Made by a program: the position numbers and the translations under genes. Below the pieces are notes generated by a model. That model worked only from the letters and a program-made list of their open reading frames with translations, had not been told where the DNA came from and searched no databases. From the IMG/VR virus record IMGVR_UViG_2617270955_000009: 22,150 nucleotides of DNA, one strand, 5' to 3'. Within the stretch, counting starts at the first letter, position 1. Each line of letters starts with the position of its first letter. Below, piece after piece: positions 1 through 22,150 of this stretch. Source of the stretch: a virus. Its lineage: Duplodnaviria; Heunggongvirae; Uroviricota; Caudoviricetes.

Positions 1-219
1 TCACATCCACATAATTTGCTGCCCTGACGGCAACGGGTGCGGCCTTACGGCGTGGACTTCTCCCGGCTTCACGATGTATCTCTGTACCGACTCATAGGTG
101 ATGAACGTGGCGCTGCAATTCACGTTCTGACACTGGTGATAACGCTCTTTTGTCGTGTCAGTGATATAGCGGCTTGTACGCGCATGTGCGGCATGCTGGC
201 ATAAAGGACAATGAAACAT
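1..219 (-). CDS. ogr: Ogr late-gene transcriptional activator (zinc-finger, 72 aa)
   Basis: ORF 1..294 (-) contains MFHCPLCQHAAHARTSRYITDTTKERYHQCQNVNCSATFITYESVQRYIVKPGEVHAVRPHPLPSGQQIMWM, recognised as P2 Ogr with a Cys4 zinc-binding arrangement (CPLC ... CQNVNC). Start placed at the internal Met that gives the 72-aa P2-length product; stop codon is at window positions 1-3. Confidence 0.88.
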   Translation of the reverse strand: MFHCPLCQHAAHARTSRYITDTTKERYHQCQNVNCSATFITYESVQRYIVKPGEVHAVRPHPLPSGQQIMWM

Positions 220-300
220 CGCGAGCACCTCTTCCGGTTTTGTTGATAGTGCCATTTTAGTTAATTTATCCTTATAAAACAAACAGATAAACAAAATACA

Positions 301-1464
301 TCACTCATAATCTTCTGTTTCGTACTCCACATCAGAAAGCCTGACCTCAAGCTCTAAGGACGTCGTGAAGCCGCTATTATTCAGAAAATGTGTCACCTTA
401 GTGATTGTCCAGTCCTGCTCGTCTATGACGCGCTTAAAGCCTGACACTCTGACCGGTGTTTCCGTGTAAATATCTGCACGACCGGTAGCCAGGATGATGG
501 AGAACTCCGCAACGCCCCGTTGCAGTTTATCCCACTTCGCCTGAGCGGCACGCATAGCCTGCGCTTTTGTGGCATATACCGTGGTCAGGGCAAAAACGTT
601 GTCAGCTTCACCTGCCATGTATTCACCTTCGCGCGCTTCCGGTGCTTTTGGCGCTTTCTTCTGCGTGACCGGTTTCGCTTTCGGGTGCTCCAGTGCGCGC
701 AGGTGTTTCTCTTTCTTTTTGCGTTTCAGTTTTACCTTCTGCTTTTGTGGCTTCGGGTCTTTGGTGTGAAGCCACTTTGCCGTTACGCCGGTATAGGCTC
801 CACGGTCAGCAATCGCAAAATGATGACGGTCACCGTCGCTGCGGGTGATGGTAATCTGCGGGATTTTTTTACCGCTGGCCGTCACCCCCTGCCCCGCTTT
901 GAGAAACAACAGTTTTCCCATTTTTACCGACACCTCACCGCCGTTGCGTTCTGCAAGACGGGTCAGAAATTTCGCATCAGACTCCTGCGACTGGTCGATG
1001 TGCGGGATTTTAATTCCGGCCAGTGACGGAGCGACACTGGCTTCCAGCCTGTTACGGGAGGCTATCGCCTCAACAATCGCACCGAGCGTGGTGTCATGCC
1101 ATGAGCCTTCCCGGCGGGAATTGAGCGTCCCGCGAAAATCTGCACTCCGGGCACGGATGGTGACCACATCCGGCGCGCCCCGGTGTTCAACCTCATCAAC
1201 GGTAAATTTCCCTTTGCATACCAGGGCAAAACCTTTCCAGCCGATATACACCGTCAGGACAGCGCCACGAACCGGCAGCCCGACCTGCCCGTCGGCATCG
1301 TTCAGTTCAATATCAAGCTGGTCAGCCTCAAAGCCCCGGTTATCCGTCAGGGTCATGCTCATCAGACGGTCGCTGATATTGCCGGTAATATCCCTGCTGT
1401 CGAGCATCAGCATGTAATCCGGCGTCAGCGTACTGCCTGCATCAAATGTCAGCGTATCCAGCAT
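301..1464 (-). CDS. D: Tail protein D (late control gene D), 387 aa
   Basis: 387-aa ORF with lysine-rich central linker (KPQKQKVKLKRKKKEK); length and position between U and ogr match P2 gpD. Confidence 0.9.
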   Translation of the reverse strand: MLDTLTFDAGSTLTPDYMLMLDSRDITGNISDRLMSMTLTDNRGFEADQLDIELNDADGQVGLPVRGAVLTVYIGWKGFALVCKGKFTVDEVEHRGAPDVVTIRARSADFRGTLNSRREGSWHDTTLGAIVEAIASRNRLEASVAPSLAGIKIPHIDQSQESDAKFLTRLAERNGGEVSVKMGKLLFLKAGQGVTASGKKIPQITITRSDGDRHHFAIADRGAYTGVTAKWLHTKDPKPQKQKVKLKRKKKEKHLRALEHPKAKPVTQKKAPKAPEAREGEYMAGEADNVFALTTVYATKAQAMRAAQAKWDKLQRGVAEFSIILATGRADIYTETPVRVSGFKRVIDEQDWTITKVTHFLNNSGFTTSLELEVRLSDVEYETEDYE

Positions 1465-1943
1465 TATCCCGCCCCCGTCATACCCGTGAATTTAGTTGCC
1501 ATACTGCCCGCCTTACCGATGAGCGATTCCGCCTGTTTACCGATATCGCCATAAAGCGCGGCCAGTGATTCATCAACGCGGGTAAGTGACAGCGTAAAAT
1601 CAATTTTCCGGGGTGTGCCGTCGGCAAAGAAAATACTCCCTGTTTCACTCACCTTGCTGATGACATACATACCGTAAATCATGCCGGTGCCATCCAGCAA
1701 CGGCCACGCCCGGCCTTCCTCTGCCATCAGTCTGAGCGTGGTCATCGTCAGCTTGCCGCCGGTCAGTTCGGGATAAAGCACACCGGCAAGCGTCATGTTT
1801 TCCTCACCCACACCTAGAAACTGGTAGGCATCCCGTTTACCGATACGGGAATTTGACGGCCAGCGATAATCTGATTCACGCTGCATGGTCTGGTGTGGCA
1901 GCGTCTGGCGCATAAAAACAAACATCCCTAACGCGAGCATCAT
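1464..1943 (-). CDS. U: Tail protein U, 159 aa
   Basis: 159-aa ORF immediately downstream of T and overlapping the D start by 1 nt; size and synteny match P2 gpU. Confidence 0.85.
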   Translation of the reverse strand: MMLALGMFVFMRQTLPHQTMQRESDYRWPSNSRIGKRDAYQFLGVGEENMTLAGVLYPELTGGKLTMTTLRLMAEEGRAWPLLDGTGMIYGMYVISKVSETGSIFFADGTPRKIDFTLSLTRVDESLAALYGDIGKQAESLIGKAGSMATKFTGMTGAG

Positions 1944-1957
1944 TTTTCATCACCTCC

Positions 1958-4405
1958 TTAACCGTCATGCATCATGCTGGCACGGGCGCGCGCACGTTTA
2001 TCCCGCTCGTATTTTTCGAGCGCATCCTGTAACTGGCGGTCAAGCTGTGTCCCCGGCGCAGTACCACCCGTCAGGCTGATGTGATATTCGTTTTTACTCT
2101 GGTCCACATAAGAGCGGCCAGCCGGTGCCGTAACCGGCTGATAAGCCTGATAACCTGCATAAGAGCTGGTCGCCGGAATATAACCACCGGTGCCATACGT
2201 GGCGGCATGAGTTCTGGCGGCTGTCTGGTCAAGTGTGTCTGACTCTTTGTTGATGAACCCGAGCTTTTCCAGTACCCAGTCAATGCCGCTGCGTAATTTG
2301 TTGAACGCATTAAGCGGCAGCATCAGCGCGTCAGCCAGTGCCTGCCCGAACATGACGCCCGTGTCACGGCAACGGTTCAGGGTGTCCTGGGTGGCTTTGA
2401 CCGGGGCAATCAGGTTTTTAAACCACTGCCACGCAGCCTGTAACTTTTCACCCAGCCAGTCAAACACCGGCTTAAGTGGCGTGAACAGTTCTCCCACCGG
2501 CGCAAATGCCGCTTTCAGCCCTTCCACCACACCGCCAAAGAATGCGCTGACAGGCTCCCAGTATTTACGGATAAGTAACGCTCCGGCGACAATGGCGGCC
2601 ACCACGGCCACTACCGGCCAGCTAATCGCCCCGATGGCCGTCATAACGGCACTGCCAACCGTCGTGAAAATTGCCCCCATTGCGCCTGCTGCAGCAATGA
2701 TGGCATTGATGCCGGTGATAACCGGCCAGGCTACAAGACCAATGGCACCGATGATGCCAGTAAGCGCCAGTGCGCCACCGGCAATGAGGCCGATGGTTGA
2801 CGCCAGTGATTTGTTTTTCTGGATCCAGCCGTCGAGTTTTAACACATACTTTGTGGCCGTCTGCGTGAGCTTACGCAGTGCGCCTTCCTGCTGGTCAAAC
2901 AGGTCAGTCCCCACCGCCTCATAAGCGGACTGAAACTCTTTAAAGTCACCGCCGAGGTTGTCCTGCATGATATTTACCAGCTCGGCGGTCTTCCCGTCTG
3001 AGGCTTTAAACGCAGCGGTCAGTTTGTCCAGCTTTCCGGTTGAGGCGGCAGTCATCAGCACGGCGGCGGCTGAGCTGGCCTCCTCCCCGAAAATGGTTTT
3101 CATGTATTCAGCCTGCTGGGCAGTACCGAGCCGGTTTTTCTCAAAACTGGCCTGCATTTCTTTCAGAATGGTAAATATTGGCCGGGTGTTTCCCTTGCTG
3201 TCTGAGGTTTTCACTCCAAGCTCTTTGAGTGCATCCCATGCTTTTCCCGTCGGTGCCTGCAGGCGGCTTAACACGGCACGGCTTCCCGTCCCCGCCATTG
3301 AGCCTGTGATTTTTGCATCATGCAGCGCCCCGACCATTGCGGCGGTTTCTTCAATGCTGACACCGGCATTTTTTGCCACAGGTGCGGCATAGGTCAGCGC
3401 ATCGCTCATGCCGTCAAAATCGGCGGCGGTTTTGTTCATCGTCATGGAGAGAACATCCCCGATATGAGCGACCTTATCGTTTGAAAGCTGAAAGGCGGAT
3501 TTCATCCCCATCAGCAGGGCGGCGTTTTCTTCCATCGTGCGGCGGTTCGCCAGCGCCATATTCAGCGTGACCGGCGTTGCCGCCTGAATGGCATCAACAT
3601 CCCCACCCGCTTTCGCGATGATTATCTGTGCACCGGCCGCATCATCCGCCGAGGCGGCGGTATTGTCGCCGAGCTGGCGCGCCTGTTTGCGTAGTGCGGT
3701 CATTTCGGCGGAGTCTTTTGCCACTCCGAGCACGGCCTGCAATTCTGAGTTTTTCTGCGCAAACTCATAACCGGGCATCAGCAACTTAACTCCGGCCATC
3801 GTTCCCGCCGCCGCAATCCCCACACCGGCAGCGCCCACTGAGGCCATATTTCCGGCCAGTTCCTTTCCGGCCTGATAACGCTGTTTTACTGCATTAAGTT
3901 TTGCCTGTTGCGCACTGACACGCGCCAGCGCGTCACGCTGCCGGTTAAGCTGTGCGGTGGTTTCACTGATACGGTTTTTCAGTCCCTGCTCATCATGTGC
4001 AAGATTGCGGGTATTAATTCCCACAGCGGCCAGTTCCCGCTGCTGGCGCTTAACGGAATCCGTCAGGCGGTTATATTTCGCCTGTAAGTCCTCCGCCGCA
4101 CGCTTTGCGGATTCCAGCACTTTCGCCTGAGCACGGGTCGGACGTTCAGTGTTTTTAAACTGTGTGGCAAGTGCTTCGGCTTCCTGCCGTGCCTTTTCAA
4201 GTGCATGACCAGTCACGGCAAGCTGTGCGCTGGTCTTGCGAAATCCCTCAATACGGGATGCGTGACCGTTCAGCTCGCGCAGTGATTTTTGTGTTTCCCG
4301 GATATCCCCCGACAGCGACTTACTCGCTGTGCGGATGGATTTAAACGGGCGGGATGCCTGGTCAACAGCCCTGAGCAATACCTGTAATTTTACATTGTTA
4401 CTCAT
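1958..4405 (-). CDS. T: Tail tape measure protein T, 815 aa
   Basis: 815-aa ORF; coiled-coil-rich N-terminal third, Ala/Gly-rich hydrophobic middle segment, position after E/E'; matches P2 gpT length exactly. Confidence 0.92.
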   Translation of the reverse strand: MSNNVKLQVLLRAVDQASRPFKSIRTASKSLSGDIRETQKSLRELNGHASRIEGFRKTSAQLAVTGHALEKARQEAEALATQFKNTERPTRAQAKVLESAKRAAEDLQAKYNRLTDSVKRQQRELAAVGINTRNLAHDEQGLKNRISETTAQLNRQRDALARVSAQQAKLNAVKQRYQAGKELAGNMASVGAAGVGIAAAGTMAGVKLLMPGYEFAQKNSELQAVLGVAKDSAEMTALRKQARQLGDNTAASADDAAGAQIIIAKAGGDVDAIQAATPVTLNMALANRRTMEENAALLMGMKSAFQLSNDKVAHIGDVLSMTMNKTAADFDGMSDALTYAAPVAKNAGVSIEETAAMVGALHDAKITGSMAGTGSRAVLSRLQAPTGKAWDALKELGVKTSDSKGNTRPIFTILKEMQASFEKNRLGTAQQAEYMKTIFGEEASSAAAVLMTAASTGKLDKLTAAFKASDGKTAELVNIMQDNLGGDFKEFQSAYEAVGTDLFDQQEGALRKLTQTATKYVLKLDGWIQKNKSLASTIGLIAGGALALTGIIGAIGLVAWPVITGINAIIAAAGAMGAIFTTVGSAVMTAIGAISWPVVAVVAAIVAGALLIRKYWEPVSAFFGGVVEGLKAAFAPVGELFTPLKPVFDWLGEKLQAAWQWFKNLIAPVKATQDTLNRCRDTGVMFGQALADALMLPLNAFNKLRSGIDWVLEKLGFINKESDTLDQTAARTHAATYGTGGYIPATSSYAGYQAYQPVTAPAGRSYVDQSKNEYHISLTGGTAPGTQLDRQLQDALEKYERDKRARARASMMHDG

Positions 4406-4825
4406 TCGTGTTTCCGCTTCGCCGGAGCGCCTTTTCGCGCCATGTGATGAGTTCGGTCAGGCTCATGGGATACAGTTCTGATGGCGGCCAGTGAAATATC
4501 ACTGCCACATCCGCCATCAGGTCATCGACCGAGAGATTTTTCGGAAACGTTACTGCACCGAGTTCGGCGACAAAAAACCGACCACCTTACCGGCCAGCGC
4601 CACAAGGTCAGGCAGCTCCAGCGCGGCGACCTCCTGCTCAGTCAGCATCGGTGCCGTCATGCGCGGCAGCACTTTAATCAGTGCATCGACTTCGGAGTTT
4701 GCGACCGCAGCCAGACTGACACCGCGCAGCGTCCCGGCATTGGGTTTCATCAGCGTGACCTGTTCGATAACCTGCTCACCACGCTTGACCGGATTGTCCA
4801 GGGTAATCACATTTTCTTTGTTCAT
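4398..4825 (-). CDS. E+E': E+E' fusion made by programmed -1 frameshift (predicted 142 aa)
   Basis: On the minus strand the E frame reads GGT TTT TTG TCG. A -1 slip on T_TTT_TTG continues as VAELGAVTFPKNLSVDDLMADVAVIFHWPPSELYPMSLTELITWREKALRRSGNTNE and stops at TAA (4398-4400), overlapping the T start (ATGAGTAA). 85 aa of E plus 57 aa gives 142 aa, the known P2 E+E' size. Confidence 0.75.
4550..4825 (-). CDS. E: Tail assembly chaperone E, 91 aa
   Basis: 91-aa ORF MNKENVITLDNPVKRGEQV...GKVVGFLSPNSVQ; size and position (between FII and T) match P2 gpE. Confidence 0.88.
   Translation of the reverse strand: MNKENVITLDNPVKRGEQVIEQVTLMKPNAGTLRGVSLAAVANSEVDALIKVLPRMTAPMLTEQEVAALELPDLVALAGKVVGFLSPNSVQ
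4571..4577 (-). other. -1 ribosomal frameshift slippery heptamer T_TTT_TTG (minus strand)
   Basis: Plus-strand CAAAAAA at 4571-4577 is TTTTTTG on the coding strand, six codons before the E stop; this is the canonical P2 E/E' shift site. Confidence 0.75.
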
Positions 4826-4881
4826 GGTTTTCTCACTTCTGAATCAGGGTTAACCGGTCAGCCAGGCTGACCGGATGAAAA

Positions 4882-5400
4882 TCACAGGCCGATATTGCGG
4901 CGGTGTTGCTCCAGCCGGTCGACGCCGTTCACCTTCTCAATCATGTTGATGGTGTCAATTTCGACCAGCTCCTTACCGTCCATCGTCAGCCGGAAATAGG
5001 TGCAGACCACGGAGATTTTCGACTCGGTGTCTTCTCCCTGTTTACCCTCGCCGGTGTCGATTTCTTTCTGACGGCCACGCATGACCACTTCGACGGCCAC
5101 CGTTTCGCCGGTATCGTCACGCTGGTAAGAGCCTGCAAAACGAATCGGCACGGCATCCACACCGGTTGCGGCGTAAAGTTCCCAGATAACCGAATCCGGG
5201 AAGCCCCCGAGCGACCACTCCATTGACAGCGCATCGTCATCAAGGCCGAGGTCTACCGGTGCGCTGCCGTTCATCCCCGCACCGCGATAGTTTTCGAGCT
5301 TACGGGTCAGTTTTGGCAGCGTGACGGACTTCGCGACGCCCTGATAGCTGTAGCCGTTCAGAAAGACGTTCATTAACTTGAGTTTGCGCGGCATTGCCAT
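4882..5400 (-). CDS. FII: Tail tube protein FII, 172 aa
   Basis: 172-aa ORF directly downstream of FI; length and synteny match P2 gpFII. Confidence 0.9.
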   Translation of the reverse strand: MAMPRKLKLMNVFLNGYSYQGVAKSVTLPKLTRKLENYRGAGMNGSAPVDLGLDDDALSMEWSLGGFPDSVIWELYAATGVDAVPIRFAGSYQRDDTGETVAVEVVMRGRQKEIDTGEGKQGEDTESKISVVCTYFRLTMDGKELVEIDTINMIEKVNGVDRLEQHRRNIGL

Positions 5401-5412
5401 CGGTCAGACTCC

Positions 5413-6603
5413 TTAATTGCTGTTAACCGAGGTGACCAGATTTGCCAGGTATTTATCGGTAATACGCTGGCGCAGGGTCAGGTTTTCAAGAGGAGGCACC
5501 GGGGTATAGTCGTAGTCGATATACAGTTTTCCGGCCTTGAGGGTTTCCGCATCGTTGGATTCTTCGCTGAACCAGCAGGTCGCATCCACGATATAGCCGT
5601 TTGTTTTCAGCTCACGGAATTTGGCATTGATACCGTCAACGATGTCGCGAATCAGCGTTGCGGTGATGGGCTTGTCCACCGCCCACATGTGCGCCTCAGC
5701 CATCGTGTCGGCCAGCACCTGCGCGGTGCGGGTGTAGTTTTCAAAGAGGAACAGCGGGTCATCAGAGCAGGTACGGTTACCCCAGAAGCGGAAACCGTCG
5801 CGGCGAATCAGCGTAGTGACGCCTGACTCGTTAAGCAGGTCAGCATCAGTGCCGGACTCCTGCAAATCCCAGAATACAGATGCGCTGATGCCGGTAACAC
5901 CGTTTACCCCGACGTTGGACAGCGTTTTATGCCAGCCCTGCTCCTGGTCGATTTTAGCGCGCAGACCCAGCGCACGGGCGGTGGCATACGCGGTGGCGGT
6001 GGTGCTGGTGACCGTATCCCATGCGAGGAAATCCGGCCAGATGACCATCAGCTCACGCTGGCTGAAATTCTGGCGGTAGGCTTTCACCTCGGAAATGGTT
6101 TTACAGCCCCATGCGCTGATATACCCGAAAGCGCGCAGCTTCTGACAGACAGATGCCAGTGCAACAGCCACCTCTTTGGTGTCCAGTCCCGGTACGCCGA
6201 GAATACGCGGTTTAACACCGGTTACCGACTCCGCCGCCAGCAGGGCTTTCAGTCCGGTGTACTGACCGTTTTCGTCGGTGGTGCCGATGATATTGGAAAC
6301 GGTCTGCGCAAGTTTCGTTTCTTCGTCGTCGCCGGTGCCGTCTTCAACACGCACGACAACGGTGACCGGTTTTGACTGGTCAGCGATGGCCTGCAACGAC
6401 GCCGCCAGCGTGCCTTTTTTACCAGCCTTTGCAATTGCGCTCTGCACATTGGTAATCAGCACCGGTTTATTGAGGGGGAAGGTTTCCGCATCCGCATCGC
6501 TGGCCGTGCAGACCATGCCGACAATGGCAGTGGATACGGTGGAAATGACGCGGGTGCCGTCGTTAATCTCCAGCACCTGCACGCCGTGATGATAGTCACT
6601 CAT
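5413..6603 (-). CDS. FI: Contractile tail sheath protein FI, 396 aa
   Basis: 396-aa ORF; length and synteny match P2 gpFI. GGAG Shine-Dalgarno sits about 10 nt upstream of the ATG on the minus strand. Confidence 0.92.
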   Translation of the reverse strand: MSDYHHGVQVLEINDGTRVISTVSTAIVGMVCTASDADAETFPLNKPVLITNVQSAIAKAGKKGTLAASLQAIADQSKPVTVVVRVEDGTGDDEETKLAQTVSNIIGTTDENGQYTGLKALLAAESVTGVKPRILGVPGLDTKEVAVALASVCQKLRAFGYISAWGCKTISEVKAYRQNFSQRELMVIWPDFLAWDTVTSTTATAYATARALGLRAKIDQEQGWHKTLSNVGVNGVTGISASVFWDLQESGTDADLLNESGVTTLIRRDGFRFWGNRTCSDDPLFLFENYTRTAQVLADTMAEAHMWAVDKPITATLIRDIVDGINAKFRELKTNGYIVDATCWFSEESNDAETLKAGKLYIDYDYTPVPPLENLTLRQRITDKYLANLVTSVNSN

Positions 6604-6704
6604 CCGTTTAACTCCGTGGTTAATGGGTGCAACTATTTTCTGTTGTGCGAAGCATGAGACGCTATTTGACCTGGCTGGTCAGTGAATGAAACAACAGATA
6701 AAGA
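6604..6704 (-). promoter_or_regulatory. Expected late promoter region for the FI-FII-E-T-U-D operon (P_F equivalent); exact elements not resolved
   Basis: About 100 bp between a terminator hairpin and the FI start. Contains a TGACC-N5-GGTCA dyad (6667-6681) and a TGTTGT...ACAACA pair, but I could not find an exact TGT-N12-ACA Ogr-site consensus. Confidence 0.3.
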
Positions 6705-6729
6705 AAAGACGGGCAATCAGCCCGTCTTT
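6705..6729 (-). terminator. Rho-independent terminator hairpin (minus-strand oriented)
   Basis: AAAGACGGG-caatcag-CCCGTCTTT, a 9-bp stem with 7-nt loop, followed on the minus strand by the T-rich tract TCTTTATCTGTTGTTTC. Confidence 0.6.
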
Positions 6730-6777
6730 AAATCACAAATTTTGACAGTTTTTGATTTGCATTCGAGAATAACAGTT

Positions 6778-6800
6778 CGGGGGAGAAAAAACCTCCCCCG
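6778..6800 (-). terminator. GC-rich hairpin immediately 3' of the cargo operon (probable terminator)
   Basis: C-GGGGGAG-aaaaaac-CTCCCCC-G, an 8-bp G/C stem 15 nt after the TAA stop at 6815-6817; the downstream minus-strand tract (GAACTGTTATTCTC) is only moderately U-rich. Confidence 0.45.
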
Positions 6801-6814
6801 CCCACGTAACTTGC

Positions 6815-7864
6815 TTAACTACATGAATCAATGATGTTTTTCACAAGCTTATTTATTTCAGATTCATTAGTGCCAAATTCACCCGCTTTAAAATTAATAC
6901 CTCGCGCTGCAAGATTTCTTTTTATTTTACTTACTTCACTCAGCATAAAGTCATAATTTAACGTTTTTTCTTTAATGCCCTTTGAATATATTACAGGGAA
7001 GGCTTTCATTAATGCCGCATATCCTGTGAGTTTACTTAAATAATATTCCCTTGGTGTATTCCACTCAACTGGATAGACATTGCTAATAGCATTAAAATAA
7101 TTCAATATTATTTTTTGAATTACAGCGTCATTCTCTTCGATAAAATAATCGCGGAATATACACTGATTATTTGGCGTTAATGGCAGATTCATTTTTAACA
7201 TTCTTGCATCATCATCAGGTTTTTTTGAAATATGTTGGATAAGATATTTAATGAAAGTGCTTTGTGATAATGATGCATTATCTTGGTTTATTTCCTTTTT
7301 CCCAAGCATTTTTAGCTTTTTATAAAAAGGGGAATCAGGATTACTGTTTATTCCTCTCGCGATTTCGTGGCATGTTTTTTGTGGACTCCTGCGTTCTGCA
7401 AGCGAAAATAAATCATATACAATTGATGGATTTACACGAGTTTGTTTACTATTAATAATTGAGAAAACATAGGCTTTTTCTTCATCAGTAAGATCAAACA
7501 TTAAAACAACAGGTAGTTCAAAAAGTTTAGCATTAGAGGAATTTTTAATTCCCCATAATCTGTGTTGACCATCGATAACATCACCTATAACCACTTCAGA
7601 CTCAAAGTAAAAATAGGTATCATCCATTTTTAAATTGGATGAATCATCGACGGAAATTATGATCGGCGTTGGAAAAGTCGCATCCGGCTCACTAGTGTAC
7701 TTTGCGATTTCTGAAACTCTTGATGATGAAATATCCCTTTGCACACCAAATTCGAAATCTCTGCGACGATCAACTCTAACTATATCGAGCAAGTCAATGG
7801 CTCTTATTGATGTTAAATAGAAAGTACCGATTGGTTGATTAACTTCAATATATTTCAACTTCAT
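6815..7864 (-). CDS. DGQHR-domain protein (DndB-like, ParB/sulfiredoxin-fold), 349 aa; accessory cargo gene B
   Basis: Exact DGQHR motif at residues 98-102 (nt 7559-7573, VIDGQHRLWG), preceded by the family-typical N-terminal QPIGTFYLTSIRAIDLL element. AT-rich codon usage. GGAG Shine-Dalgarno 8-11 nt upstream. Start ATG overlaps the stop of the upstream membrane gene (ATGA at 7861-7864). Confidence 0.8.
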   Translation of the reverse strand: MKLKYIEVNQPIGTFYLTSIRAIDLLDIVRVDRRRDFEFGVQRDISSSRVSEIAKYTSEPDATFPTPIIISVDDSSNLKMDDTYFYFESEVVIGDVIDGQHRLWGIKNSSNAKLFELPVVLMFDLTDEEKAYVFSIINSKQTRVNPSIVYDLFSLAERRSPQKTCHEIARGINSNPDSPFYKKLKMLGKKEINQDNASLSQSTFIKYLIQHISKKPDDDARMLKMNLPLTPNNQCIFRDYFIEENDAVIQKIILNYFNAISNVYPVEWNTPREYYLSKLTGYAALMKAFPVIYSKGIKEKTLNYDFMLSEVSKIKRNLAARGINFKAGEFGTNESEINKLVKNIIDSCS

Positions 7865-8460
7865 ATCATAACTCCTTTACCATCATCAGTTACTTCATTG
7901 GTTGCCATTGTCTGATCTATAACTATTGCATCTTCTTTTTCTATATAACTTTCATCATTTATATCTGTATGTGCAGTAGCGTTAAGTTTTAATACGCCAA
8001 ATGTATAGCATACTAAGACTATAGAAATAACATAAATTATAGGTTGAGTTAAACCGAATGTTAAATCATTAGAATTTGGTAGGATTAAATCCTTTGATTG
8101 CGTAGCAGCGTATATTATACCTGATAATTGTAATAAAATAATCAATAATATTATTGATATGATTTTTATTGTTTTAAATTCAAGTTTTGAACTAAAAAAA
8201 GTTACAAACATAGGCCCAAGGGCAGAGGCTATTAATGCAATGGAAAATGTGTAAAAACTTCCTGACGAACCTTCTATGTAAATAGATTGATCTAGTGGTA
8301 TTGAATGTGAATAATATCTTATGATTATATTTGCAATAATCCCCATTTGCCCACAAACAACTGTAAAAACGATCCAAATAAAAAACTCTCTTTTGTTTTT
8401 TCTTATCGCATCGAATGGATAGGAAAGGGATTTCTTTAATATTTGCCAGTCTTTACTCAT
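7861..8460 (-). CDS. Small integral membrane protein, four predicted TM helices, acidic C-terminal tail (199 aa from ATG; 202 aa if the GTG at 8467-8469 is used); accessory cargo gene A
   Basis: Hydrophobic segments FFIWIVFTVVCGQMGIIANIII, FYTFSIALIASALGPMFVTFF, IKIISIILLIILLQLSGIIYAA and TQPIIYVISIVLVCYTFGVL; C-terminal DINDESYIEKEDAIVIDQTMATNEVTDDGKG. The ORF-track start at 8469 is a GTG; the first ATG is at 8458-8460 with AAGAG upstream. Confidence 0.7.
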   Translation of the reverse strand: MSKDWQILKKSLSYPFDAIRKNKREFFIWIVFTVVCGQMGIIANIIIRYYSHSIPLDQSIYIEGSSGSFYTFSIALIASALGPMFVTFFSSKLEFKTIKIISIILLIILLQLSGIIYAATQSKDLILPNSNDLTFGLTQPIIYVISIVLVCYTFGVLKLNATAHTDINDESYIEKEDAIVIDQTMATNEVTDDGKGVMI

Positions 8461-8646
8461 GTTATGCACTCTTTATTTAAACTTATCAACAATATGTAAC
8501 TATCAATTAATAACCGTTTACTCTTTTCAAATAATAAAATTATAATCATCAAAAAAATCGACATTATAATTAGACAACATTTTTAACACTAAGTGATACC
8601 TGACTCATGTCTCCAGACCCTAAAACCGCTTGCATAATTTAGAATG

Positions 8647-8675
8647 ATAATACTACCTTATAGTAGGCTTGTGAA
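8647..8675 (-). promoter_or_regulatory. Candidate sigma70-type promoter for the cargo operon (TTCACA-17 bp-TATTAT)
   Basis: Read from the minus strand of the AT-rich intergenic region; reasonable -35/-10 spacing but one of several possible matches in AT-rich DNA, with a long (about 180 nt) leader. Confidence 0.2.
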
Positions 8676-8864
8676 CTTATATAGCCTGAGTCAAGTAATT
8701 AATAAATCACTTATTTCGTTTTTTTTGCATTTGGTCGCTGTGATTTTTTCATAAACAAACTTACAATGATGTCAGCAATGTCTGCTCTTGGCACAGAGCG
8801 GACTGTCAGATTAGTTTTTACTCTGTGCCATAGATGTATAAACTCACATCAGAGCTTATACAAT

Positions 8865-9443
8865 TTATTGTGGCATTTCAGGCCATTCTATATCCGGAGC
8901 ATCTTCCGGCTGAATGCGATTCAGTAGCACACGGTATTTTTTCCAGTGTGTCAGGCTTAACTTTTCTTCCTCAGTTGCCATATCCAAATCGACAGCATCC
9001 TGCAGCGTGGCAATGATTTCACCTGCATATGCAATCTGCTCTTTCTTCTGAGACTCAGCCGCTCTGACAAGTGCATCACGCTCTGCATTCTCATCATTCA
9101 CCCACGCATTTCCGTTCCATTTCTGATAATCCCCCTCCGGGGAAATGGCTGTCACGTCTGGAGATAATGCGCCAAGTTCAGAAATATAAATGGCTGCTCC
9201 CGTTTTCGTTTCGTATACGGTCTTTCCGCGATGGTCTTCCATCAACTCCCATTTCATTTCATCTGCATTGAAAACGGCTGCATAACCAGCCGGTATATCA
9301 GGCGGCGCAATATCTGTACTGTTTGCAGGCAAACCTGTATACGGAGGAATATATGCATCACTTTCGCCAATAAATTCATTGGTTCCATCAAGTAAATTGA
9401 AAACGCGGATAGTTTGTGCTTCTGCACTCATTCTGAAAGCCAT
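8865..9443 (-). CDS. G: Tail fibre assembly protein (Tfa / gpG-like chaperone), 192 aa
   Basis: 192-aa ORF immediately 3' of tail fibre H with a Tfa-typical conserved C-terminus ([29 protein letters not shown]). Confidence 0.85.
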
Positions 9444-12061
9444 TATGCAAGCCTCACAATATAGTTAAATGCGATGTTTTTGACGGTGTTTTCGGTATTA
9501 CCTGTAGCATTAACGGTAATAGAGTGCCCGTGTGAGCCAATAGCAACCGTGTGTGAATGTGCACCAATACCAACCGTATGATTATGTGCGCCAATATCTA
9601 CCGTGTGGGCATGATTCCCGGCAGCTCCTGATGTGCCATTAAACGATGGGTTGTCAAAGCCTGTTTTACCGGTTTCACCATTAGTATTGGCATTCCCTCT
9701 GTAAATGGTATGTGTATGGTTACCAGTGGTATTAGTGGTTTTTGTTCCGTAGTTAAACGTACTGACTGTCTTCGTCCCGTAATCAAATGAACTGGTCGTT
9801 TTCGTCCCTAAATCCGTATTTGACGCACTGGCACTGTGAGTATGCGATTTAATCCCGTCCTGTTCCTGTGACAATACGGCACGCCCACTGGCGGGTTTGC
9901 CCTTGATTGTCCAGCCGCGCATATCTGGAATAACACCAGAAGGATAGACAATAGCCAGTTTCGGATATGCAGCCTTATCAAACGTCTGCCCCTGCATAAT
10001 TGCATAGCCTGCAGGTGGTGTATCTGATGGCCACGGCAGCGGAACACCAGGCGGAAACGCTTCAATATCTTTCGTCCCGTCAAAGGTTACGCCGTTAATT
10101 GTCCTTGCCGTTTTCAGCTTTGTTGCTGTAGCAGCATTGCCGGACAGTTCGCCTGAAAGACCGGCGCTGAAGGTTTGTTTCGCCGCCCATGTCTGGGCTT
10201 CGTCAATAATTGGCACACGTCTTGTGGTGATCGTGCGACTTCCCGGATTTCCTGAAATACGCACCATAAAAAAGCGGTAGTTCGCTTTACTTACAGTGCT
10301 GCGCCATACATGCATTGAGCGCCCCGCACCGGAATCATCACTCGGACCAACTGAGATGTTTATCAGGTTGCCATCAATGACGCCCCAGTCCATACCTTCG
10401 GGAATGTTGGTCATGTTATCAAGCCGAACGGTTATCAGACTGCCCGGCACAAAGTCGTAGGTCTGCCAGTCCAGGCTGGAGAGTTTTGCCACTGCACCGC
10501 CGATACCCAGATTCAGGGGAAGTGAATACGAGGTGTAGACTTCACGCCATTCGCTCCACGAGCTGCCGGTATAGACGCGCTCAAACGTGCGACCTTTAAG
10601 GGTTGCACCTGTTCCGGCAGTTGTATAACGCTGCCATACGTTAACACCATCAAAGCGCCTCAACACTTCCAGAATCCCGAGGACTGTCACGCCGTTTCCG
10701 TCCAGTATTGGACCGTTGGTCGCTTTACCTGTAACGCTGTAAATACCTGGTGAAGTCACCTCATTCAAATCCCCGTCGTAATAACGACTCTCTGACTGAT
10801 GACCGACTCTTAACCACGGTTCCCACTGTGGATTTGATGCATCCCAGCTTGCCGCAAGGCAGCGGACATACATATTTCCACGGCGAGTGGTATAACGTTG
10901 CGTTCTTCCATAATTCCCGCCTTCGAGGATCTCAAGCATCCCCTGAGCAAAGCCGCCTTCCTCTGGATAATTGCGTTCATATGAAGCTATAGCCGAGCTA
11001 CTGTTACGCCATAAACCAAGATGCTCGGCGGCTCCAAGCGTATTCAGGTCTATAGTCGTACTCAAAGGGCGGGTAGCAGATTGAGTGTGACGCCATACGC
11101 CCCACGGACCATCAGTGCCATTCCACTTATTGGCGAGTTTACGCATGTAAACATTGCCGTCTCTCGTGGTAAAGCGTTGCGTACCTGCAAAATTGCCGGC
11201 AGCAAAAACCTCAAGCACACCGACAGCATTATCTTCCGGGAAATTTTTCTCCAGTGTTGAGTTAGTTGAGGTAGCTTTAGACCAGATCCCCAGATAAGCC
11301 TTAACGGGACCAAATGTATTCAGGTCGGCATCAACCGGCATTTCGCCATTGTTTTTCATAAACGTCAGACTGGTAACGCCAACATTGTCCAGAAAAGCTG
11401 ATTTATCCTGGATATCTGCACCATTCTGATTTTTCGCCAGACGTGAATTTGCGTTGTCATTTGCTGCCTTGACCGCTTTTGGCGTTGCCGCCAATGACTC
11501 ACTGGTGCTGTTTGTTGCACTGCTTAACTGAGTAAAACCTTTTTCTGTCAGCGTGGCGTCAGGATGGCGGCGGGACTGCTCATGTTCTGCGATTTTGTCA
11601 TCGACGTAATCCTGCGTCGCCATCACTGTGCTGGCATCAATACTCAGCTCAACGGACGCCACGTTACTGACAATAATAACCATGCGGCAGGTCTGCGCAC
11701 GCCCGGAGCCTTCAGCGAGTTCAGGCTTATAGCTTTCTGCCATGTTGGCGACCGCAATCAGTGTTCCGGCATCGTCATACAGACCAAGCTCACGCATCCA
11801 GAAGCCGCCCACTTCGGGCGGTACAACCAGTTCAGCCACGATATAGTTTTTATTCTTATTATCCACGCTGACTTTATTCAGAGCGTGACGCCAGACCTCA
11901 TGCACCAGTTTCGTCTGACCGGCATCCGGCACCGGCAATTTGCCATTACCGTCACCCACGGCCATTGCAGACAGGTTTACTTTTTTCCCGCCGGGGACAG
12001 TGGCGGCTGCCAGCTTCGCGGCTCCGGCAGTAGTGATAACGGTTTTAAATTTCGTGCTCAT
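9443..12061 (-). CDS. H: Tail fibre protein H, 872 aa (longer than the 669 aa of P2)
   Basis: N-terminus ([21 protein letters not shown]...) is P2 gpH-like; the central part has three ~70-aa internal repeats; the C-terminus has His-x-His repeats ([36 protein letters not shown]). Confidence 0.88.
9515..9630. repeat. Tandem ~27-bp repeats within the 3' end of H, encoding the histidine-rich (HxH) repeat
   Basis: Plus-strand units resembling caaccgtgtgtgaatgtgcaccaatac / caaccgtatgattatgtgcgccaatat / ctaccgtgtgggcatgattcccggc; the period of 27 nt equals the 9-aa protein repeat. Confidence 0.6.
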
Positions 12062-17412: not shown

Positions 17413-17921
17413 CAGATTTGACTCACGATGCAGCGCGGCTTGTCCTGGATGCGCGCCACTGCCCAGCGCATATCCCGCCACAGCTCATCAATGGTGCTGT
17501 CTATGCTGTCGGCCTTTTTGTCGCCTTTCGCACTGGCATCCACGCCGCGATAACGCTCATAAAGCGACGCGGTCGCCATCGCACACACGGCGCGCTCGTA
17601 GTAAAAAACTTTGATGCTTTCACCGTCGATATCGTCCGCCGGGACGTCAGCCAGACGCGAAAAACCGGCAGCAATTTTCTGTTCGCGGTACTCGTACAGC
17701 TCCGCATTCGTCTCCGCCATGCCTGACTTGATGGCCTCACGCAGACGGGCGGGGGCGACGGTCTGCTCAAGGCGCATACGTTCCCGGACGCGCTTCGGGT
17801 CGATATCGGGAAAAAAGAACGTGTTTTTAATCACCGGCTCGTCGCCTGCCGGTTGCGGGATGACCGCCGTACCCTCACCGGACACGGGAGCCTCCTTTCG
17901 CGGAATAATCAGCGTCATCAT
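17412..17921 (-). CDS. L: Head completion/stabilisation protein L, 169 aa
   Basis: ORF 17412..17981 trimmed to the MMTLIIPRKEAPVSG start, which is preceded by a GAGG Shine-Dalgarno; this gives the 169-aa P2 gpL length. Confidence 0.82.
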   Translation of the reverse strand: MMTLIIPRKEAPVSGEGTAVIPQPAGDEPVIKNTFFFPDIDPKRVRERMRLEQTVAPARLREAIKSGMAETNAELYEYREQKIAAGFSRLADVPADDIDGESIKVFYYERAVCAMATASLYERYRGVDASAKGDKKADSIDSTIDELWRDMRWAVARIQDKPRCIVSQI

Positions 17922-18767: not shown

Positions 18768-19784
18768 TTACGCTCCCGGCTCTGCGGTCGCTTTAGCCAG
18801 TGTGGAGAAATCACCGACCTTAATTTTTTCCACCAGACAACCGGCGGCGTAGTCTTCCACCACGTAATCAATGTTCATTGACTCGTAGTTCTCCACGCGG
18901 TCGAGTTTCGGGTTTTCCTCAATCACGCGGCGATGGCTGTCATCCATGTAGTAGATGGACAGGTTTTCCAGCTTTGTGATGAGCATCGCATCCGCCGGGA
19001 AGTACGGGACGCGTACCGCCGGCAGGTTACCGATGCGTTTCTGGCTGATGATGACGTCAGCGGCCAGCATTTCGCTGTTGTCCTGCTCCTTGTTGACGAT
19101 GGGAAAATACTTGTCCGCCAGTAGCTGACGTCCCACAATCACCACAAGGTCAGGGTCTTCCTGATACCACGGCTCAATCAGGTTGTTGGTCGCATCCATC
19201 ACCAGTGCGTCAAGGCTGGCATAATCACCGCCCTTACCCACGCGGATAACCTCAGAGATGGTGTGCCCTTCCTCGTCAGTGACCTTGCTCATCACGCGCG
19301 CCGGTGCTTCATTGCGGTATTTCTGCAGCCAGCCGACCGCCACATCCTGTAGCATCGGATTACTGCTGCGGTCAGAGGTTTCGGCACGCCTCACGCCGTT
19401 AAAACCGGCCATGATTAAATCAAGGGACTGGCGTTTGATAATGGCGTTACGGATACGGAGCTGGAAATCCTGATAACGCGCCCACAGGTCAAGCGTTTTG
19501 TAGCGGATATAAAAATCGAAGTTAATCTGGTCGCATTCGTACTTGTTTGACGCCAGCTTCGAGAAGTCCTTCGGCTGACGCTCGGTGCCACCGGCGGTGT
19601 CGCTGGTGCTGGCGATGGAGCCGGTGACACCAATACCAATTTTTTCCCCTTTCATTTCGCTGACCGGCACAATGTTGATGCGGGTCAGAAAGTCAGAGGA
19701 CTCCTGCATGGTGTTCATCAGGGTCTGGGTGACCGACGGTTCAACGGTGAATTTTTTCGACACATCACCGGTGCGTATTTTCAT
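18768..19784 (-). pseudogene. N: Major capsid protein gene N, 5'-truncated by IS insertion (338 codons retained of about 357)
   Basis: ORF is P2 gpN-like from GDVSKKFTVEPSVTQTLMNTMQESSDF onward. The in-frame upstream sequence hits a stop within IS-type repeat sequence (GAGTGATCTCC), and the ATG at 19782-19784 is fortuitous at the junction. Confidence 0.8.
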
Positions 19785-19842
19785 GAAAGGAGATCACTCA
19801 ATAACTTCCATCGAGATCGGGTAATAACATTTGAACAGATCG

Positions 19843-19909
19843 CTGAATAACATCGATGGAGATCACTTTTGACTCATTTTGTTATTCAGTGATCTCCATC
19901 AATGTTATT
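19843..19909. repeat. Imperfect inverted repeat in the IS left terminus
   Basis: CTGAATAACATCGATGGAGATCACT (19843-19867) versus AGTGATCTCCATCAATGTTATT (19888-19909), 1 mismatch in 22 bp; related GGAGATCACTCAATAAC copy at 19789-19805. Confidence 0.7.
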
Positions 19910-19964
19910 GGAACTTCACAGGTGTGTTGATCTGTATCTTTTGCCATTCCGGTAAAGGATACCT

Positions 19965-21506
19965 ATGCCAACAGTTCCAATTTCTATGAGAAAACTTAAA
20001 GAAATTCTTAGGCTTAAATACGGTGTTGGACTCAGCCATCGACAAATTGGTCGTAGTCTTGCAATCTCCCCTTCCGTTGTATCCAGATATGCTAATCGGG
20101 CGGCTCAACTTGGCATAAAGCAGTGGCCCTTACCTACAGGATGGGATGATACAAAACTAAAACATGCGTTCCTTCAGACCCAGGTTAAGATGAAGAAGCA
20201 CTCTCTGCCTGACTGGGCTACAGTACACCGGGAACTGCGTAATAAATGCGTGACGCTGCAGCTACTCTGGGAAGAATACTGTGAGCGTAATCCAGGCGGT
20301 TTTTACAGCTATAACCATTACTGCCGGATGTACCGTGAATGGCTCAAAACCACTTCACCATCAATGCGTCAGGTACATAAAGCTGGCGAAAAACTTTTCG
20401 TTGATTACTGTGGACCTACCGTTGGCGTTACCGACCCTGAGACCGGAGAAATAAGAACTGCTCAGGTCATCGTAGCTGTTCTCGGGGCATCAAGTTACAC
20501 ATGGGCAGAGGCCACCTGGTCTCAGCAGCTTGAAGACTGGGTGATGAGTCATGTTCGCTGCTTCCAGTGGTTGGGTGGCGTTCCTGAACTTGTTGTTCCG
20601 GACAATCTGAAAAGCGCCACATCCAGGGCATGTAAGTATGATCCTGACGTTAACCCTACCTACCAGCAGATGCTTGAGCATTATAATGTCGCAGTTTTGC
20701 CTGCGCGGCCACGTAAACCGAAAGATAAAGCCAAAGCTGAAGTTGGCGTTCAGGTTGTTGAACGCTGGATCATGGCCCGAATCAGGCATGAGATCTTCTA
20801 CAGCCTTGCATCGCTTAATCAGCGCATTCGGGAGTTGCTGGAAAGACTGAATAACAAAATAATGCAGAAGTTGGGTTATTCACGTGCAGAACTCTTCATC
20901 CAGCTTGATAAACCCGCACTGAAGCCTCTTCCTGAAGCCAGTTACAGTTACACCCTGGTGAAGAAAGTCAGAGTTCATGCCGATTACCACGTGGAAATCG
21001 ACAAACATTACTACTCGGTTCCATGTTCGCTGTTAGGCCAGCAACTGGAAGCATGGATCTCCGGAGAACTGGTAAGACTCTTCAATCAGGGGCAGGAGGT
21101 TGCTGTGCACCCGCGCAAGCGTACTTATGGCTACAGTACCCGCAACGAGCACATGCCTGAAGCTCATCGACAGCATGCCACCTGGACGCCAGAGCGTCTT
21201 CTGGAATGGGCGGGGCACATAGGCAGTGAAACTCATAGTTATGTGCTTCATATACTGAACTCTCGTCCACATCCGGAACAAAGCTATCGCTTCTGCCTTG
21301 GACTCCTGAACCTTCATAAAAAATACAGTAAAGCCAGACTTAATGCAGCATGTGCAAGAGCTCTGAAAACAAAGGTATGGCGTCTGTCAGGTATTAAATC
21401 GATCCTGGAAAAAGGTCTGGATAAACAACCTGTTCAGGATCCAAAACCAGATCTGTTATCCACGATGGAACACGAAAACGTACGCGGCAGTGAGTATTAC
21501 CACTGA
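19965..21506 (+). CDS. istA: IS21-family transposase IstA, 513 aa
   Basis: 513-aa ORF with an N-terminal helix-turn-helix region (LSHRQIGRSLAISPSVVSRY) and a central integrase-like region; followed 12 nt later by an IstB-type gene. Confidence 0.85.
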   Translation: MPTVPISMRKLKEILRLKYGVGLSHRQIGRSLAISPSVVSRYANRAAQLGIKQWPLPTGWDDTKLKHAFLQTQVKMKKHSLPDWATVHRELRNKCVTLQLLWEEYCERNPGGFYSYNHYCRMYREWLKTTSPSMRQVHKAGEKLFVDYCGPTVGVTDPETGEIRTAQVIVAVLGASSYTWAEATWSQQLEDWVMSHVRCFQWLGGVPELVVPDNLKSATSRACKYDPDVNPTYQQMLEHYNVAVLPARPRKPKDKAKAEVGVQVVERWIMARIRHEIFYSLASLNQRIRELLERLNNKIMQKLGYSRAELFIQLDKPALKPLPEASYSYTLVKKVRVHADYHVEIDKHYYSVPCSLLGQQLEAWISGELVRLFNQGQEVAVHPRKRTYGYSTRNEHMPEAHRQHATWTPERLLEWAGHIGSETHSYVLHILNSRPHPEQSYRFCLGLLNLHKKYSKARLNAACARALKTKVWRLSGIKSILEKGLDKQPVQDPKPDLLSTMEHENVRGSEYYH

Positions 21507-21517
21507 TACGGGATCCA

Positions 21518-22150
21518 ATGATGAATCATCTTTACGAACAACTGACCGCACTTAAACTCACCGGCTTCCGTGATGCGCTTAAAAAGCAACTTGCTCAACC
21601 GGGCACATACCAGGAGCTGGGCTTCGAAGAACGCCTGTCATTACTGACAGCAGAAGAACTAACCTGCCGTGAAAACAGGAAGGCAGAGCGTCTGATCAAA
21701 CATGCACGGTTCAGACTTAATGCTGAGTTATCAAAGCTGGATTATCGTAACAATAGAGGGCTGGACAGGGCCCTCATCCGTTCACTCAGTCAGGGAAACT
21801 GGTTAACCCTGAAACAAAATATTTTACTGACCGGGGCCACCGGCAGCGGTAAAACGTTCCTGGCATGTGCACTTGGTCATAATGCCTGCCGACAGGGATA
21901 CAAGGTCTACTATTATCGCCTTAAAGCGCTGATGGAACAGTGCTATCAGGGGCATGCTGATGGAAGATACAGCAAACTTTTGACCAGGCTGAATAATAGC
22001 GATCTGCTGCTTCTGGATGACTGGGGGCTGGAACCTCTCTCATCAGAACAGCGTAGCGACCTGCTGGAAATAGTGGATCTGATGTACCAACGAGGCTCAA
22101 TCATCGTAGTGAGCCAGTTGCCGGTGGAAAACTGGTACAAAATGATCGGA
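21518..22150 (+). CDS. istB: IS21-family ATP-binding helper protein IstB (3'-partial, runs off window)
   Basis: My own translation from ATG 21518: MMNHLYEQLTALKLTGF... with Walker A GATGSGKT and Walker B LLLLDDWG; no stop before the window end. Confidence 0.8.
   Translation, partial: MMNHLYEQLTALKLTGFRDALKKQLAQPGTYQELGFEERLSLLTAEELTCRENRKAERLIKHARFRLNAELSKLDYRNNRGLDRALIRSLSQGNWLTLKQNILLTGATGSGKTFLACALGHNACRQGYKVYYYRLKALMEQCYQGHADGRYSKLLTRLNNSDLLLLDDWGLEPLSSEQRSDLLEIVDLMYQRGSIIVVSQLPVENWYKMIG

Follow-up and report, generated by a model that had tools for sequence, protein, structure and literature searches.

How did a pair of AT-rich genes come to lie between two conserved late genes of a P2-like prophage, and what might the pair do there? 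The question is raised by positions 6604–8864 of the virus record IMGVR_UViG_2617270955_000009 (Caudoviricetes), of which one strand of 22,150 nucleotides (nt), hereafter the window, was analysed. Here two genes, encoding a 199-amino-acid (aa) membrane protein and a 349-aa protein with a DGQHR domain, separate the tail-fibre assembly gene G from the tail-sheath gene FI. These positions correspond to the established site for accessory genes in P2-like (Peduovirus) prophages, the Z/fun slot between G and FI. We consider it likely that a foreign unit of 2.07 kb entered this slot at a palindrome on its G side (L palindrome), that it is expressed from its own promoter and terminated at the two hairpins that follow it, and that it encodes an anti-phage or exclusion pair. 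The slot itself was already known, the cargo is new, and the arrangement of the boundary palindromes, named L and R, is possibly new as well.

The unit in the Z/fun slot

The slot lies between G and FI, its flanks are conserved among relatives, and its content varies. In P2 itself, the gap is occupied by fun(Z), which the P2 annotation lists with old and tin as a lysogenic-conversion gene. The name Z/fun for the hotspot between G and FI is used with citations to Calendar 1998 and Nilsson 2004, and the hotspot section of PMC13586616 describes an accessory and defence hotspot among the tail genes of P2 elements. In published passages on these elements, quick exchange of defence loci among near-identical P2 elements is documented.

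The earlier note on this DNA, made from its letters alone, had proposed a cassette-exchange site marked by an abrupt drop in guanine-plus-cytosine (GC) content at about 6.8 kb and a recovery at about 8.9 kb. Both proposals are borne out. In sliding windows, GC is 0.53–0.59 up to 6400–6699, 0.26–0.35 over 6700–8800, and 0.37–0.48 and rising over 8650–9250. The cargo (6730–8799) has a GC of 0.315, compared with 0.552 for window positions 1–6729 and 0.539 from 8800 to the end, and GC at the third codon position is 0.25 and 0.20 in its two genes versus 0.68 in FI. Low GC and codon usage thus set the cargo apart from the phage backbone, and the deviant base composition by which morons are recognised is present.

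The comparison with other P2-like prophages, which the note had suggested as a check, revealed conserved flanks and many alternative cargos. Megablast against 5426 complete E. coli genomes gave matches to some part of the interval in 958, in most of them at its edges alone, and only three carry this cargo. Among the E. coli matches listed, both flanks are kept around genes for DUF3800, SMEK, a helix-turn-helix protein with an acetyltransferase, or hypothetical proteins. A survey of IMG/VR recovered 65 P2-like loci, and the 54 with the G-side boundary element were analysed as slots. Their cargos, 835–5830 bp long with a GC of 0.31–0.45 and with genes in either orientation, form 36 clusters. The encoded proteins include DarT with Macro (DarTG), AbiGi, RelA_SpoT, OLD/Gabija-like ATPases and Mrr_cat, a retron-type reverse transcriptase with an ATPase-Toprim_I-B protein (1.6e-210), and further SMEK, DUF3800, FRG and a trypsin-like protease. 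Since unrelated genes replace the slot content, that content is presumably dispensable for phage growth. Among 1705 E. coli genomes that have the flank on the FI side, none showed an empty slot, and the smallest insert is ~410 nt. This insert, in E. coli THO-015, lies between the boundary elements and has one annotated 55-aa open reading frame (ORF) near its FI end. The cassette of the window was not found in isolated phage genomes or plasmids.

The features of the slot on which the following argument draws are these:

6604–6704, minus strand: P_F late-promoter region; ~6672–6700 aligns to the P2 activator (Ogr) site and ~6627–6629 to the F-operon start site
6705–6729, minus strand: backbone terminator-like hairpin with a 10-bp stem, then TCTTTATCTG (UUUUCUUUAU)
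6730–8799, minus strand: cargo unit of 2070 bp and 31.5% GC, comprising leader, two genes and 3' hairpin; horizontally acquired
6778–6800, minus strand: cargo 3' hairpin with a 9-bp stem, 7 GC pairs and a T-run in the loop; tail AACUGUUAUU
6815–7864, minus strand: gene for the 349-aa DGQHR-domain protein (DndB/DpdB-like, ParB/Srx fold)
7861–8460, minus strand: gene for the 199-aa membrane protein, with the RefSeq start; a longer ORF reading (202 aa) extends to 8469
8461–8799, minus strand: cassette-borne leader of 339 nt and 29.8% GC; presumed promoter site
8777–8814, no strand: L-type boundary palindrome, an inverted repeat on the G side; plus strand AATGTCTGCTCTTGGCACAGAGC GGACTGTCAGATTAG
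8790–8829, minus strand: longer alternative hairpin after G, GGCACAGAG-N22-CUCUGUGCC, overlapping the L palindrome and without a U-tail

The unit from 8799 to 6729 (2071 bp) is 97.2% identical to non-phage chromosomal loci over 2072–2076 aligned columns. In Salmonella enterica (L010–12), the copy adjoins tacAT and the gene for a small integrase in the vicinity of glyS, and in Serratia marcescens (L013–15) it lies between LacI-type and LysR-type genes. No P2 genes are near either copy, and the homology of both with the window stops at 8799 and 6729. The unit that Salmonella and Serratia share is ~185 bp longer at its 3' end than that of the window. Since the 339-nt leader and the GC-rich hairpin at 6778–6800 are inside the shared unit, both came with the cargo.

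The two junctions of the unit are of different kinds. On the G side, backbone conservation and cassette homology overlap within the L palindrome at 8777–8814. On the FI side, the window prophage lacks ~100 nt of backbone that other P2-like phages possess, one boundary palindrome among them, and the cargo abuts the backbone terminator. In few P2-like prophages does the FI-side homology end at this hairpin (2 of 40 evenly sampled rows), and 4 of the 54 IMG/VR slots are without an R site. The note had the cargo inserted upstream of the ancestral terminator; comparison upholds this order but not a plain insertion, given the missing ~100 nt and palindrome. The unit would have entered by recombination at the L palindrome, and the second join, at the backbone terminator, would have been an illegitimate or deletion-forming event.

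Candidate transcription signals and the two cargo genes

A consensus scan found the two tandem hairpins that the note had described 3' of the cargo, at 6705–6729 and 6778–6800 on the minus strand. The former is a GC-rich stem-loop followed by a U-tract, UUUUCUUUAU, as in an intrinsic terminator. Its RNA fold has −17.9 kcal/mol (z −5.7), and 0 of 200 shuffles were as good. The hairpin is also conserved in P2 and in six phages whose cargos differ from this one, and was found in all 54 IMG/VR slots. The stem reads GACGGGC/GCCCGTC here and GGCGGGC/GCCCGCC in other P2-like phages (L016–L022), a compensatory change that keeps the pairing. This comparison supports its reading as the ancestral phage terminator preceding the FI late promoter. 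It ends 5 nt before the stretch aligned to the activator-binding site of P2 pF. The P_F coordinates were taken over from P2 through an alignment that spans eight P2-like upstream regions, and they are accurate to ~1 nt. In the P2 annotation, the activator site is at 17555–17583, the start site at 17626–17628 and the ATG of FI at 17652, which places the two sites 97–69 and 26–24 nt upstream of this ATG. Sequence comparison supports a role of the hairpin in insulating the Ogr-dependent P_F from upstream transcription.

The hairpin at 6800–6778 starts 14 nt past the TAA stop codon of the DGQHR gene (6815–6817). Its RNA fold has −20.7 kcal/mol (z −3.3), again with 0 of 200 shuffles as good. It is present in the Salmonella and Serratia copies, with one or two substitutions just upstream of the stem in Salmonella. 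In more distant homologous cassettes, the hairpin is not conserved, which rules it out as an intrinsic part of the gene pair. It is a candidate terminator or stabiliser of the mRNA 3' end. Rfam scans of the window and nine loci returned no family for the hairpins or palindromes.

At the other end of the cargo, the membrane-protein gene most likely starts at the ATG at 8460, as in the RefSeq call and in all 199-aa homologues, and not at the GTG at 8469. The leader is thus 404 nt long (8461–8864), of which 8461–8799 belong to the cassette and 8800–8864 to the phage backbone. The note had described a 395-bp AT-rich leader at 8470–8864; an AT-rich leader is indeed there, with the length and start corrected as above. 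A cargo promoter in this leader, active in the lysogen, is plausible. The best hexamer match is TTCACA-17-TATTAT at 8675–8647 (10/12). From such a promoter, the cargo would be transcribed in the lysogen; its own hairpin would stop or stabilise the transcripts, and the final stop would be the backbone terminator. The longer hairpin after G (8829–8790; −22.6 kcal/mol, z −3.9) is conserved in all P2-like flanks aligned.

The stop codon of the membrane-protein gene overlaps the start of the DGQHR gene by 4 nt (ATGA). The 349-aa protein scores 161.9 bits against TIGR03187 DGQHR (cutoff 58.85) and 42.6 bits against Pfam DndB PF14072 (cutoff 29.1), and these scores above curated cutoffs place it in the DGQHR domain family of the ParB-Srx superfamily. 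The DGQHR motif, D98 G99 Q100 H101 R102, is invariant in 54 homologues. The AlphaFold2 model (predicted local distance difference test (pLDDT) 84.7) gave weak best fold matches in the PDB to ParB-CTP, KorB and Noc (E ~0.02) and PadC in Foldseek, and sequence searches of the PDB with the single protein and with a 54-sequence profile returned noise only. The protein does not qualify as a Dnd protein, with 168.9 bits against the TIGR04172 equivalog (cutoff 450) and no dnd genes around the pair in the annotated near-identical prophage. Nor does it qualify as DpdB, with 56.2 against NF041060 (cutoff 300), a PADLOC DpdB match of 1.2e-16, and no dpd genes adjacent to the pair in any locus fetched. 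DGQHR variants of ~460 aa (P0082, P0083, P0101, P0105 and P0120) share a conserved C-terminal extension of ~105 aa; a fusion to the membrane partner is ruled out for these variants.

The 199-aa protein has four long helices, an acidic C-terminal tail and strongly conserved motifs. It has 56 homologues, and an alignment of 37 contains 36 invariant columns. No match was found in Pfam, PADLOC or PHROGs. Its AlphaFold2 model is helical (pLDDT 72.6), and Foldseek found no fold relative in the PDB.

The gene pair is kept in seven genera, namely in E. coli, Salmonella, Serratia, Pectobacterium, Franconibacter, V. cholerae and Chryseobacterium, with an overlap of 4 nt, or 1 nt in V. cholerae. Across Enterobacteria, Vibrio and Bacteroidota, the DGQHR protein is ~50% identical and the membrane partner ~37–50%. 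The context of the pair is always mobile or variable. In Pectobacterium, it is an island rich in toxin-antitoxin genes and with an integrase, in Chryseobacterium an integrative element, and in V. cholerae a cassette-rich region (L006). We take the V. cholerae pair to be a superintegron cassette, with a sequence like the V. cholerae repeat (VCR) starting at its stop codon (7043–7133 of this locus). A stretch of this VCR, AGAGGGACTGTCA, is similar to AGAGCGGACTGTCA of the P2 repeat, perhaps by chance.

The two-gene cassette is probably anti-phage. In this reading, the membrane protein and its ParB-like partner, a presumed binder of nucleotides or DNA, would act jointly against phages or in exclusion. 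Several observations weigh against this picture of function and expression. The case for a role in defence or exclusion comes from the context of the pair. In PADLOC v2, no named defence system was matched by both proteins, and DpdB was matched weakly by the DGQHR protein alone. Searches of the available literature library for DGQHR/DndB-like proteins as anti-phage or integron cassettes returned nothing relevant and no phenotype. In Franconibacter (L005 7167–13050), an HATPase_c_3 gene and an ORF of 150 aa come after the pair, which faces the genes dndE, dndD and dndC. This neighbourhood suggests that, in some hosts, the pair may be connected functionally with phosphorothioation, and makes a role linked to DNA modification possible. 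Such a role is the main alternative to defence. The cargo would then pair a membrane protein with an orphan regulator, or an ATPase, of the DndB/DpdB type, and the two would act in DNA modification or in some other trait of lysogenic conversion. The adjoining dnd genes of Franconibacter fit this alternative, as does the fact that the best named relatives of the DGQHR protein are DndB, DpdB and TIGR04172, a phosphorothioation-associated DGQHR protein. However, the scores are far under the cutoffs (168.9 versus 450 and 56.2 versus 300), no dnd or dpd genes are adjacent in the prophage, Salmonella, Serratia, Pectobacterium, Vibrio and Chryseobacterium loci, and the pair always sits in variable, defence-rich places. 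We consider the alternative improbable.

The remaining adverse observations concern the proposed expression from an own promoter and termination at both hairpins. The note had the cargo bring its own terminator, and this holds for the 3' hairpin, which is part of the Salmonella/Serratia unit, but not for a canonical terminator: the hairpin at 6800–6778 is followed by AACUGUUAUU and not by a U-tract, and its U-run is in the loop. Promoter-like hexamers are not clearly enriched in the region (19 versus 11.0 ± 3.5 in shuffles). Since the hairpin after G has no U-tail, late transcripts may run on into the cargo. Most of the cargo expression might even come from 3' extension of late V-W-J-I-H-G transcripts, the cargo itself having no lysogen-active promoter, and the shared orientation of cargo and G and the lack of an outstanding promoter match would agree with this. 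On the other hand, the 339-nt leader accompanies the genes to Salmonella and also to Serratia, in which the adjoining upstream gene is divergently oriented; in addition, the P2 annotation assigns fun(Z), old and tin to lysogenic conversion. Expression mainly by late read-through seems quite unlikely to us, and we retain the own promoter in the leader as the preferred reading.

Boundary palindromes and cassette exchange

In all P2-like phages aligned, the G-side backbone ends with TAATCTGACAGTCCGCTCTGTGCCAAAAGCGGACATT and the FI-side backbone begins with AATGTCCGCTTTTCGCTCAAAGCAGACTGTCAGATTT. The two repeats are inverted with respect to each other, ~37 bp long (24–37 bp), and each holds the palindrome GTCCGCT-N10-AGCGGAC. 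Their loops distinguish two types, L with TGTGCC and R with TCGCTCA. The L site is on the G side in 54 of the 65 IMG/VR loci, and the R site ends 175–176 nt upstream of the ATG of FI in 50 of the 54 slots. The window prophage has L only; R is within the missing ~100 nt of backbone.

The same palindromes border the unit outside phages. In Salmonella and Serratia, an L-type site lies 5' of the cassette, the cassette homology begins inside it, and an R site forms the other end of these longer chromosomal units. At the LysR/LacI site of Serratia, some strains (L269–L272, compared with L013–L015) carry a 473-aa YeeR_C protein instead, and the flank homology of this swap stops exactly at the R and L palindromes. 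Exchange boundaries are thus within the sites on the G side of the P2 slot, in Salmonella and in Serratia, including one alternative cargo, as would be expected of a cassette system. In Salmonella (L010 2625–6921, from tacAT to glyS), palindromes separate tacAT, a 368-aa ORF, a 200-aa tyrosine recombinase (4036–4638) that consists of the catalytic domain only, and the membrane-DGQHR pair. The recombinase block (3979–4602) is 89% identical to part of the P2-slot cargo of L162/L191.

Palindromes also occur inside multi-module P2 cargos (L197, L234, L244, L249 and L256), where seven were counted versus 0.1 expected and at most two in 200 shuffles. They lie between modules, with none inside operons. 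Read from their loops, the orientation of each of the seven is that of its site type, and a junction in L256 reads R-19 nt-L. In the other accessory slots of P2, orf30 and old/tin, the motif was not found. The E. coli Ceylon31 locus (L263) has a single L-type palindrome at 6000–6037, extended by GGACTGTCAGATTAG as in P2, between a TIR-domain gene and a yeeP-like GTPase gene of a CP4-like island (Ag43, DUF932, antirestriction, RadC).

A genome-wide scan for the palindrome used 16 fixed bases, for which ~280 chance matches are estimated in 596 Gb. Among the matches listed (L023–L142), the palindrome family ATGTCCGCT-N10-AGCGGACAT recurs in multiple intergenic copies in soil Alphaproteobacteria (e.g. 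Pseudolabrys), Xanthomonadales and others. The copies often form pairs with a spacing of exactly 20 nt, and these pairs closely flank single genes; the genes nearby look ordinary. The palindrome as a general marker of defence cassettes was rejected, since the matches listed are mostly repeats resembling repetitive extragenic palindromic (REP) elements beside ordinary-looking genes. A full-text literature search for the palindrome sequence returned primer coincidences only.

How the cassettes would move depends on what the palindromes are. They may be conserved terminator- or REP-like hairpins that flank morons, with ordinary homologous recombination, mostly through G/H and FI of related P2-like phages, and occasional short-homology events doing the exchange; we give this about an even chance. 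It agrees with the documented swapping of defence loci between near-identical P2 elements mentioned above, with FI-side breakpoints at several positions (query 366–378, 357, 331, 275 and 241) rather than at one, with the expectation of hairpins at moron ends, and with the generic intergenic repeats of the same motif family in other phyla among the matches listed. However, the palindromic hairpins are without U-tracts, the strict orientation of the internal sites is not required of terminators, and homology between phage genes cannot explain the traffic to or from the chromosomes of Salmonella and Serratia, where the palindrome is the only shared flank. The other possibility is that the palindromes are recombination sites of a dedicated directional cassette system like integron attC/attI or pdif modules. 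L...R units would then shuttle between the P2 slot and chromosomal sites via a recombinase, perhaps the small tyrosine recombinase of Xer/FimB type whose gene is one of the cassettes. In its favour, L and R in the same relative orientation bound the membrane-DGQHR unit in P2 (L only), Salmonella and Serratia, the YeeR_C replacement in Serratia ends at both palindromes, and the seven internal palindromes keep their orientation between the modules of multi-gene cargos. In addition, inverted arms of 7–11 bp with a spacer of 8–10 bp resemble a core site of tyrosine recombinases, and a recombinase cassette of 200–228 aa is common to the Salmonella array and the P2 slots L162/L191. Nevertheless, most P2-like phages and the Serratia site are without such a recombinase nearby, shared segments of 24–37 bp suffice for exchange of the RecA or Red type, the orf30 and old/tin moron slots of P2 are without the motif, and the FI-side junction of the window is not at a site. 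The abundance of similar palindromes as intergenic repeats in soil Alphaproteobacteria and Xanthomonadales, among the matches listed, also fits a REP-like element. A dedicated system is rather unlikely in our view, and we slightly favour short homology patches or REP-like elements over a dedicated recombinase.

An even wider proposal, which we hold to be unlikely, combines two claims. L and R would be sites of an unrecognised integron-like directional exchange system that works without an integron integrase between the P2 Z/fun slot and the Salmonella, Serratia and E. coli CP4-like hot spots, and that is perhaps related to the palindrome pairs ~20 nt apart in other Proteobacteria. The membrane-DGQHR pair, in turn, would represent a new anti-phage system, ParB-like, coupled to the membrane and present across phyla.

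Setting of the slot and comparison with known systems

All genes around the slot are on the minus strand. FI is conserved backbone downstream of the slot, and G is backbone upstream of it:

4882–5400, minus strand: FII
5413–6603, minus strand: FI tail-sheath gene; Pfam Phage_sheath_1, Phage_sheath_1C and Gp18_domIII_N; RefSeq 'phage tail sheath protein' in the near-identical prophage
8865–9443, minus strand: G tail-fibre assembly gene; Pfam Caudo_TAP 2.3e-39; RefSeq annotation
9443–12061, minus strand: H tail-fibre gene

The near-identical prophage is that of E. coli AREA_502 (NZ_CP123325), a P2-like element adjoining yegQ/ogrK. It is 99.9% identical to the window over 6604–8864 and matches the first 16 kb of the window at 98.8%. 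An IS21-family element with an istA gene (19965–21506) forms the end of the window (19771–22150) and is 100% identical to ISEc12 of AREA_502. Since its position in the prophage differs from that in AREA_502, the window prophage may be disrupted. Within gene G, 8902–9100 (minus strand) has a sub-threshold Rfam match to IS009 (57.2 bits versus a gathering score of 117), and the same match occurs in L018.

A reading of the letters sufficed to spot a defence hotspot; the slot itself is textbook P2 biology. The compact, highly conserved two-gene module in mobile, defence-rich places is a well-defined and inexpensive candidate for tests of phage resistance. Where recent surveys deal with the fast swapping of defence genes between phages and chromosomes, they describe it without a mechanistic explanation. 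The same short palindromes at cassette borders in a phage slot and at unrelated chromosomal sites provide a testable handle on this process.

The closest known counterpart is fun(Z) of P2, with which the cargo shares its position, the conserved flanks and the backbone terminator with the P_F region. Slot cargos are likewise low in GC, non-structural and replaceable, and many are defence genes. However, fun(Z) is a single antisense gene, whereas the cargo of the window is a membrane-DGQHR operon co-oriented with the tail genes, and the window prophage has lost ~100 nt of backbone on the FI side together with the boundary palindrome there. The unit also resembles the morons of lambdoid phages, reportedly described by Juhala and Hendrix, in being a unit of deviant composition between two phage operons that is bounded by a terminator-like hairpin. 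It differs in that its promoter is only presumed and its boundaries are conserved palindromes common to chromosomal sites; such palindromes are said not to be part of the moron definition.

At the level of the proteins, DndB and DpdB share with the cargo the DGQHR domain and motif and the ParB-like N-terminal fold. The cargo is, however, without dnd or dpd partner genes, its scores are far below the equivalog cutoffs, and its obligatory partner is a four-helix membrane protein. Kiwa consists of the membrane protein KwaA and the DNA-binding protein KwaB. The likeness to Kiwa is one of architecture alone, a ~200-aa four-helix membrane protein followed by a soluble nucleic-acid-binding protein of ~300–350 aa. 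The PADLOC search gave no Kiwa model and the PDB no fold match for the membrane protein, so that this is an analogy and not membership; a Kiwa-like fold is not supported, Foldseek having returned nothing for that protein.

As for the boundaries, integron arrays and the pdif modules of Acinetobacter have in common with the cassettes described here that short structured sites bracket single units, that arrays are consistently oriented, and that the same unit occurs in unrelated replicons. The homologue of the pair in V. cholerae is presumably itself a VCR-flanked cassette of the superintegron. In contrast to integrons, the window has neither a VCR-like sequence nor attC-like R''/R' boxes nor an integrase, no attC model having been run; only a candidate recombinase can be named, and homologous exchange also fits. 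The promoter early stem-loop (PeSL) cassettes of T4-type phages, reportedly described by Arbiol, Comeau and Krisch in 2010, are said to have stem-loops flanking variable genes, with a proposed modular shuffling by homologous recombination. Short conserved stem-loop sequences beside variable genes are common to both, but PeSLs include an early promoter and belong to one phage group only, whereas the L and R palindromes are found in bacterial chromosomes as well.

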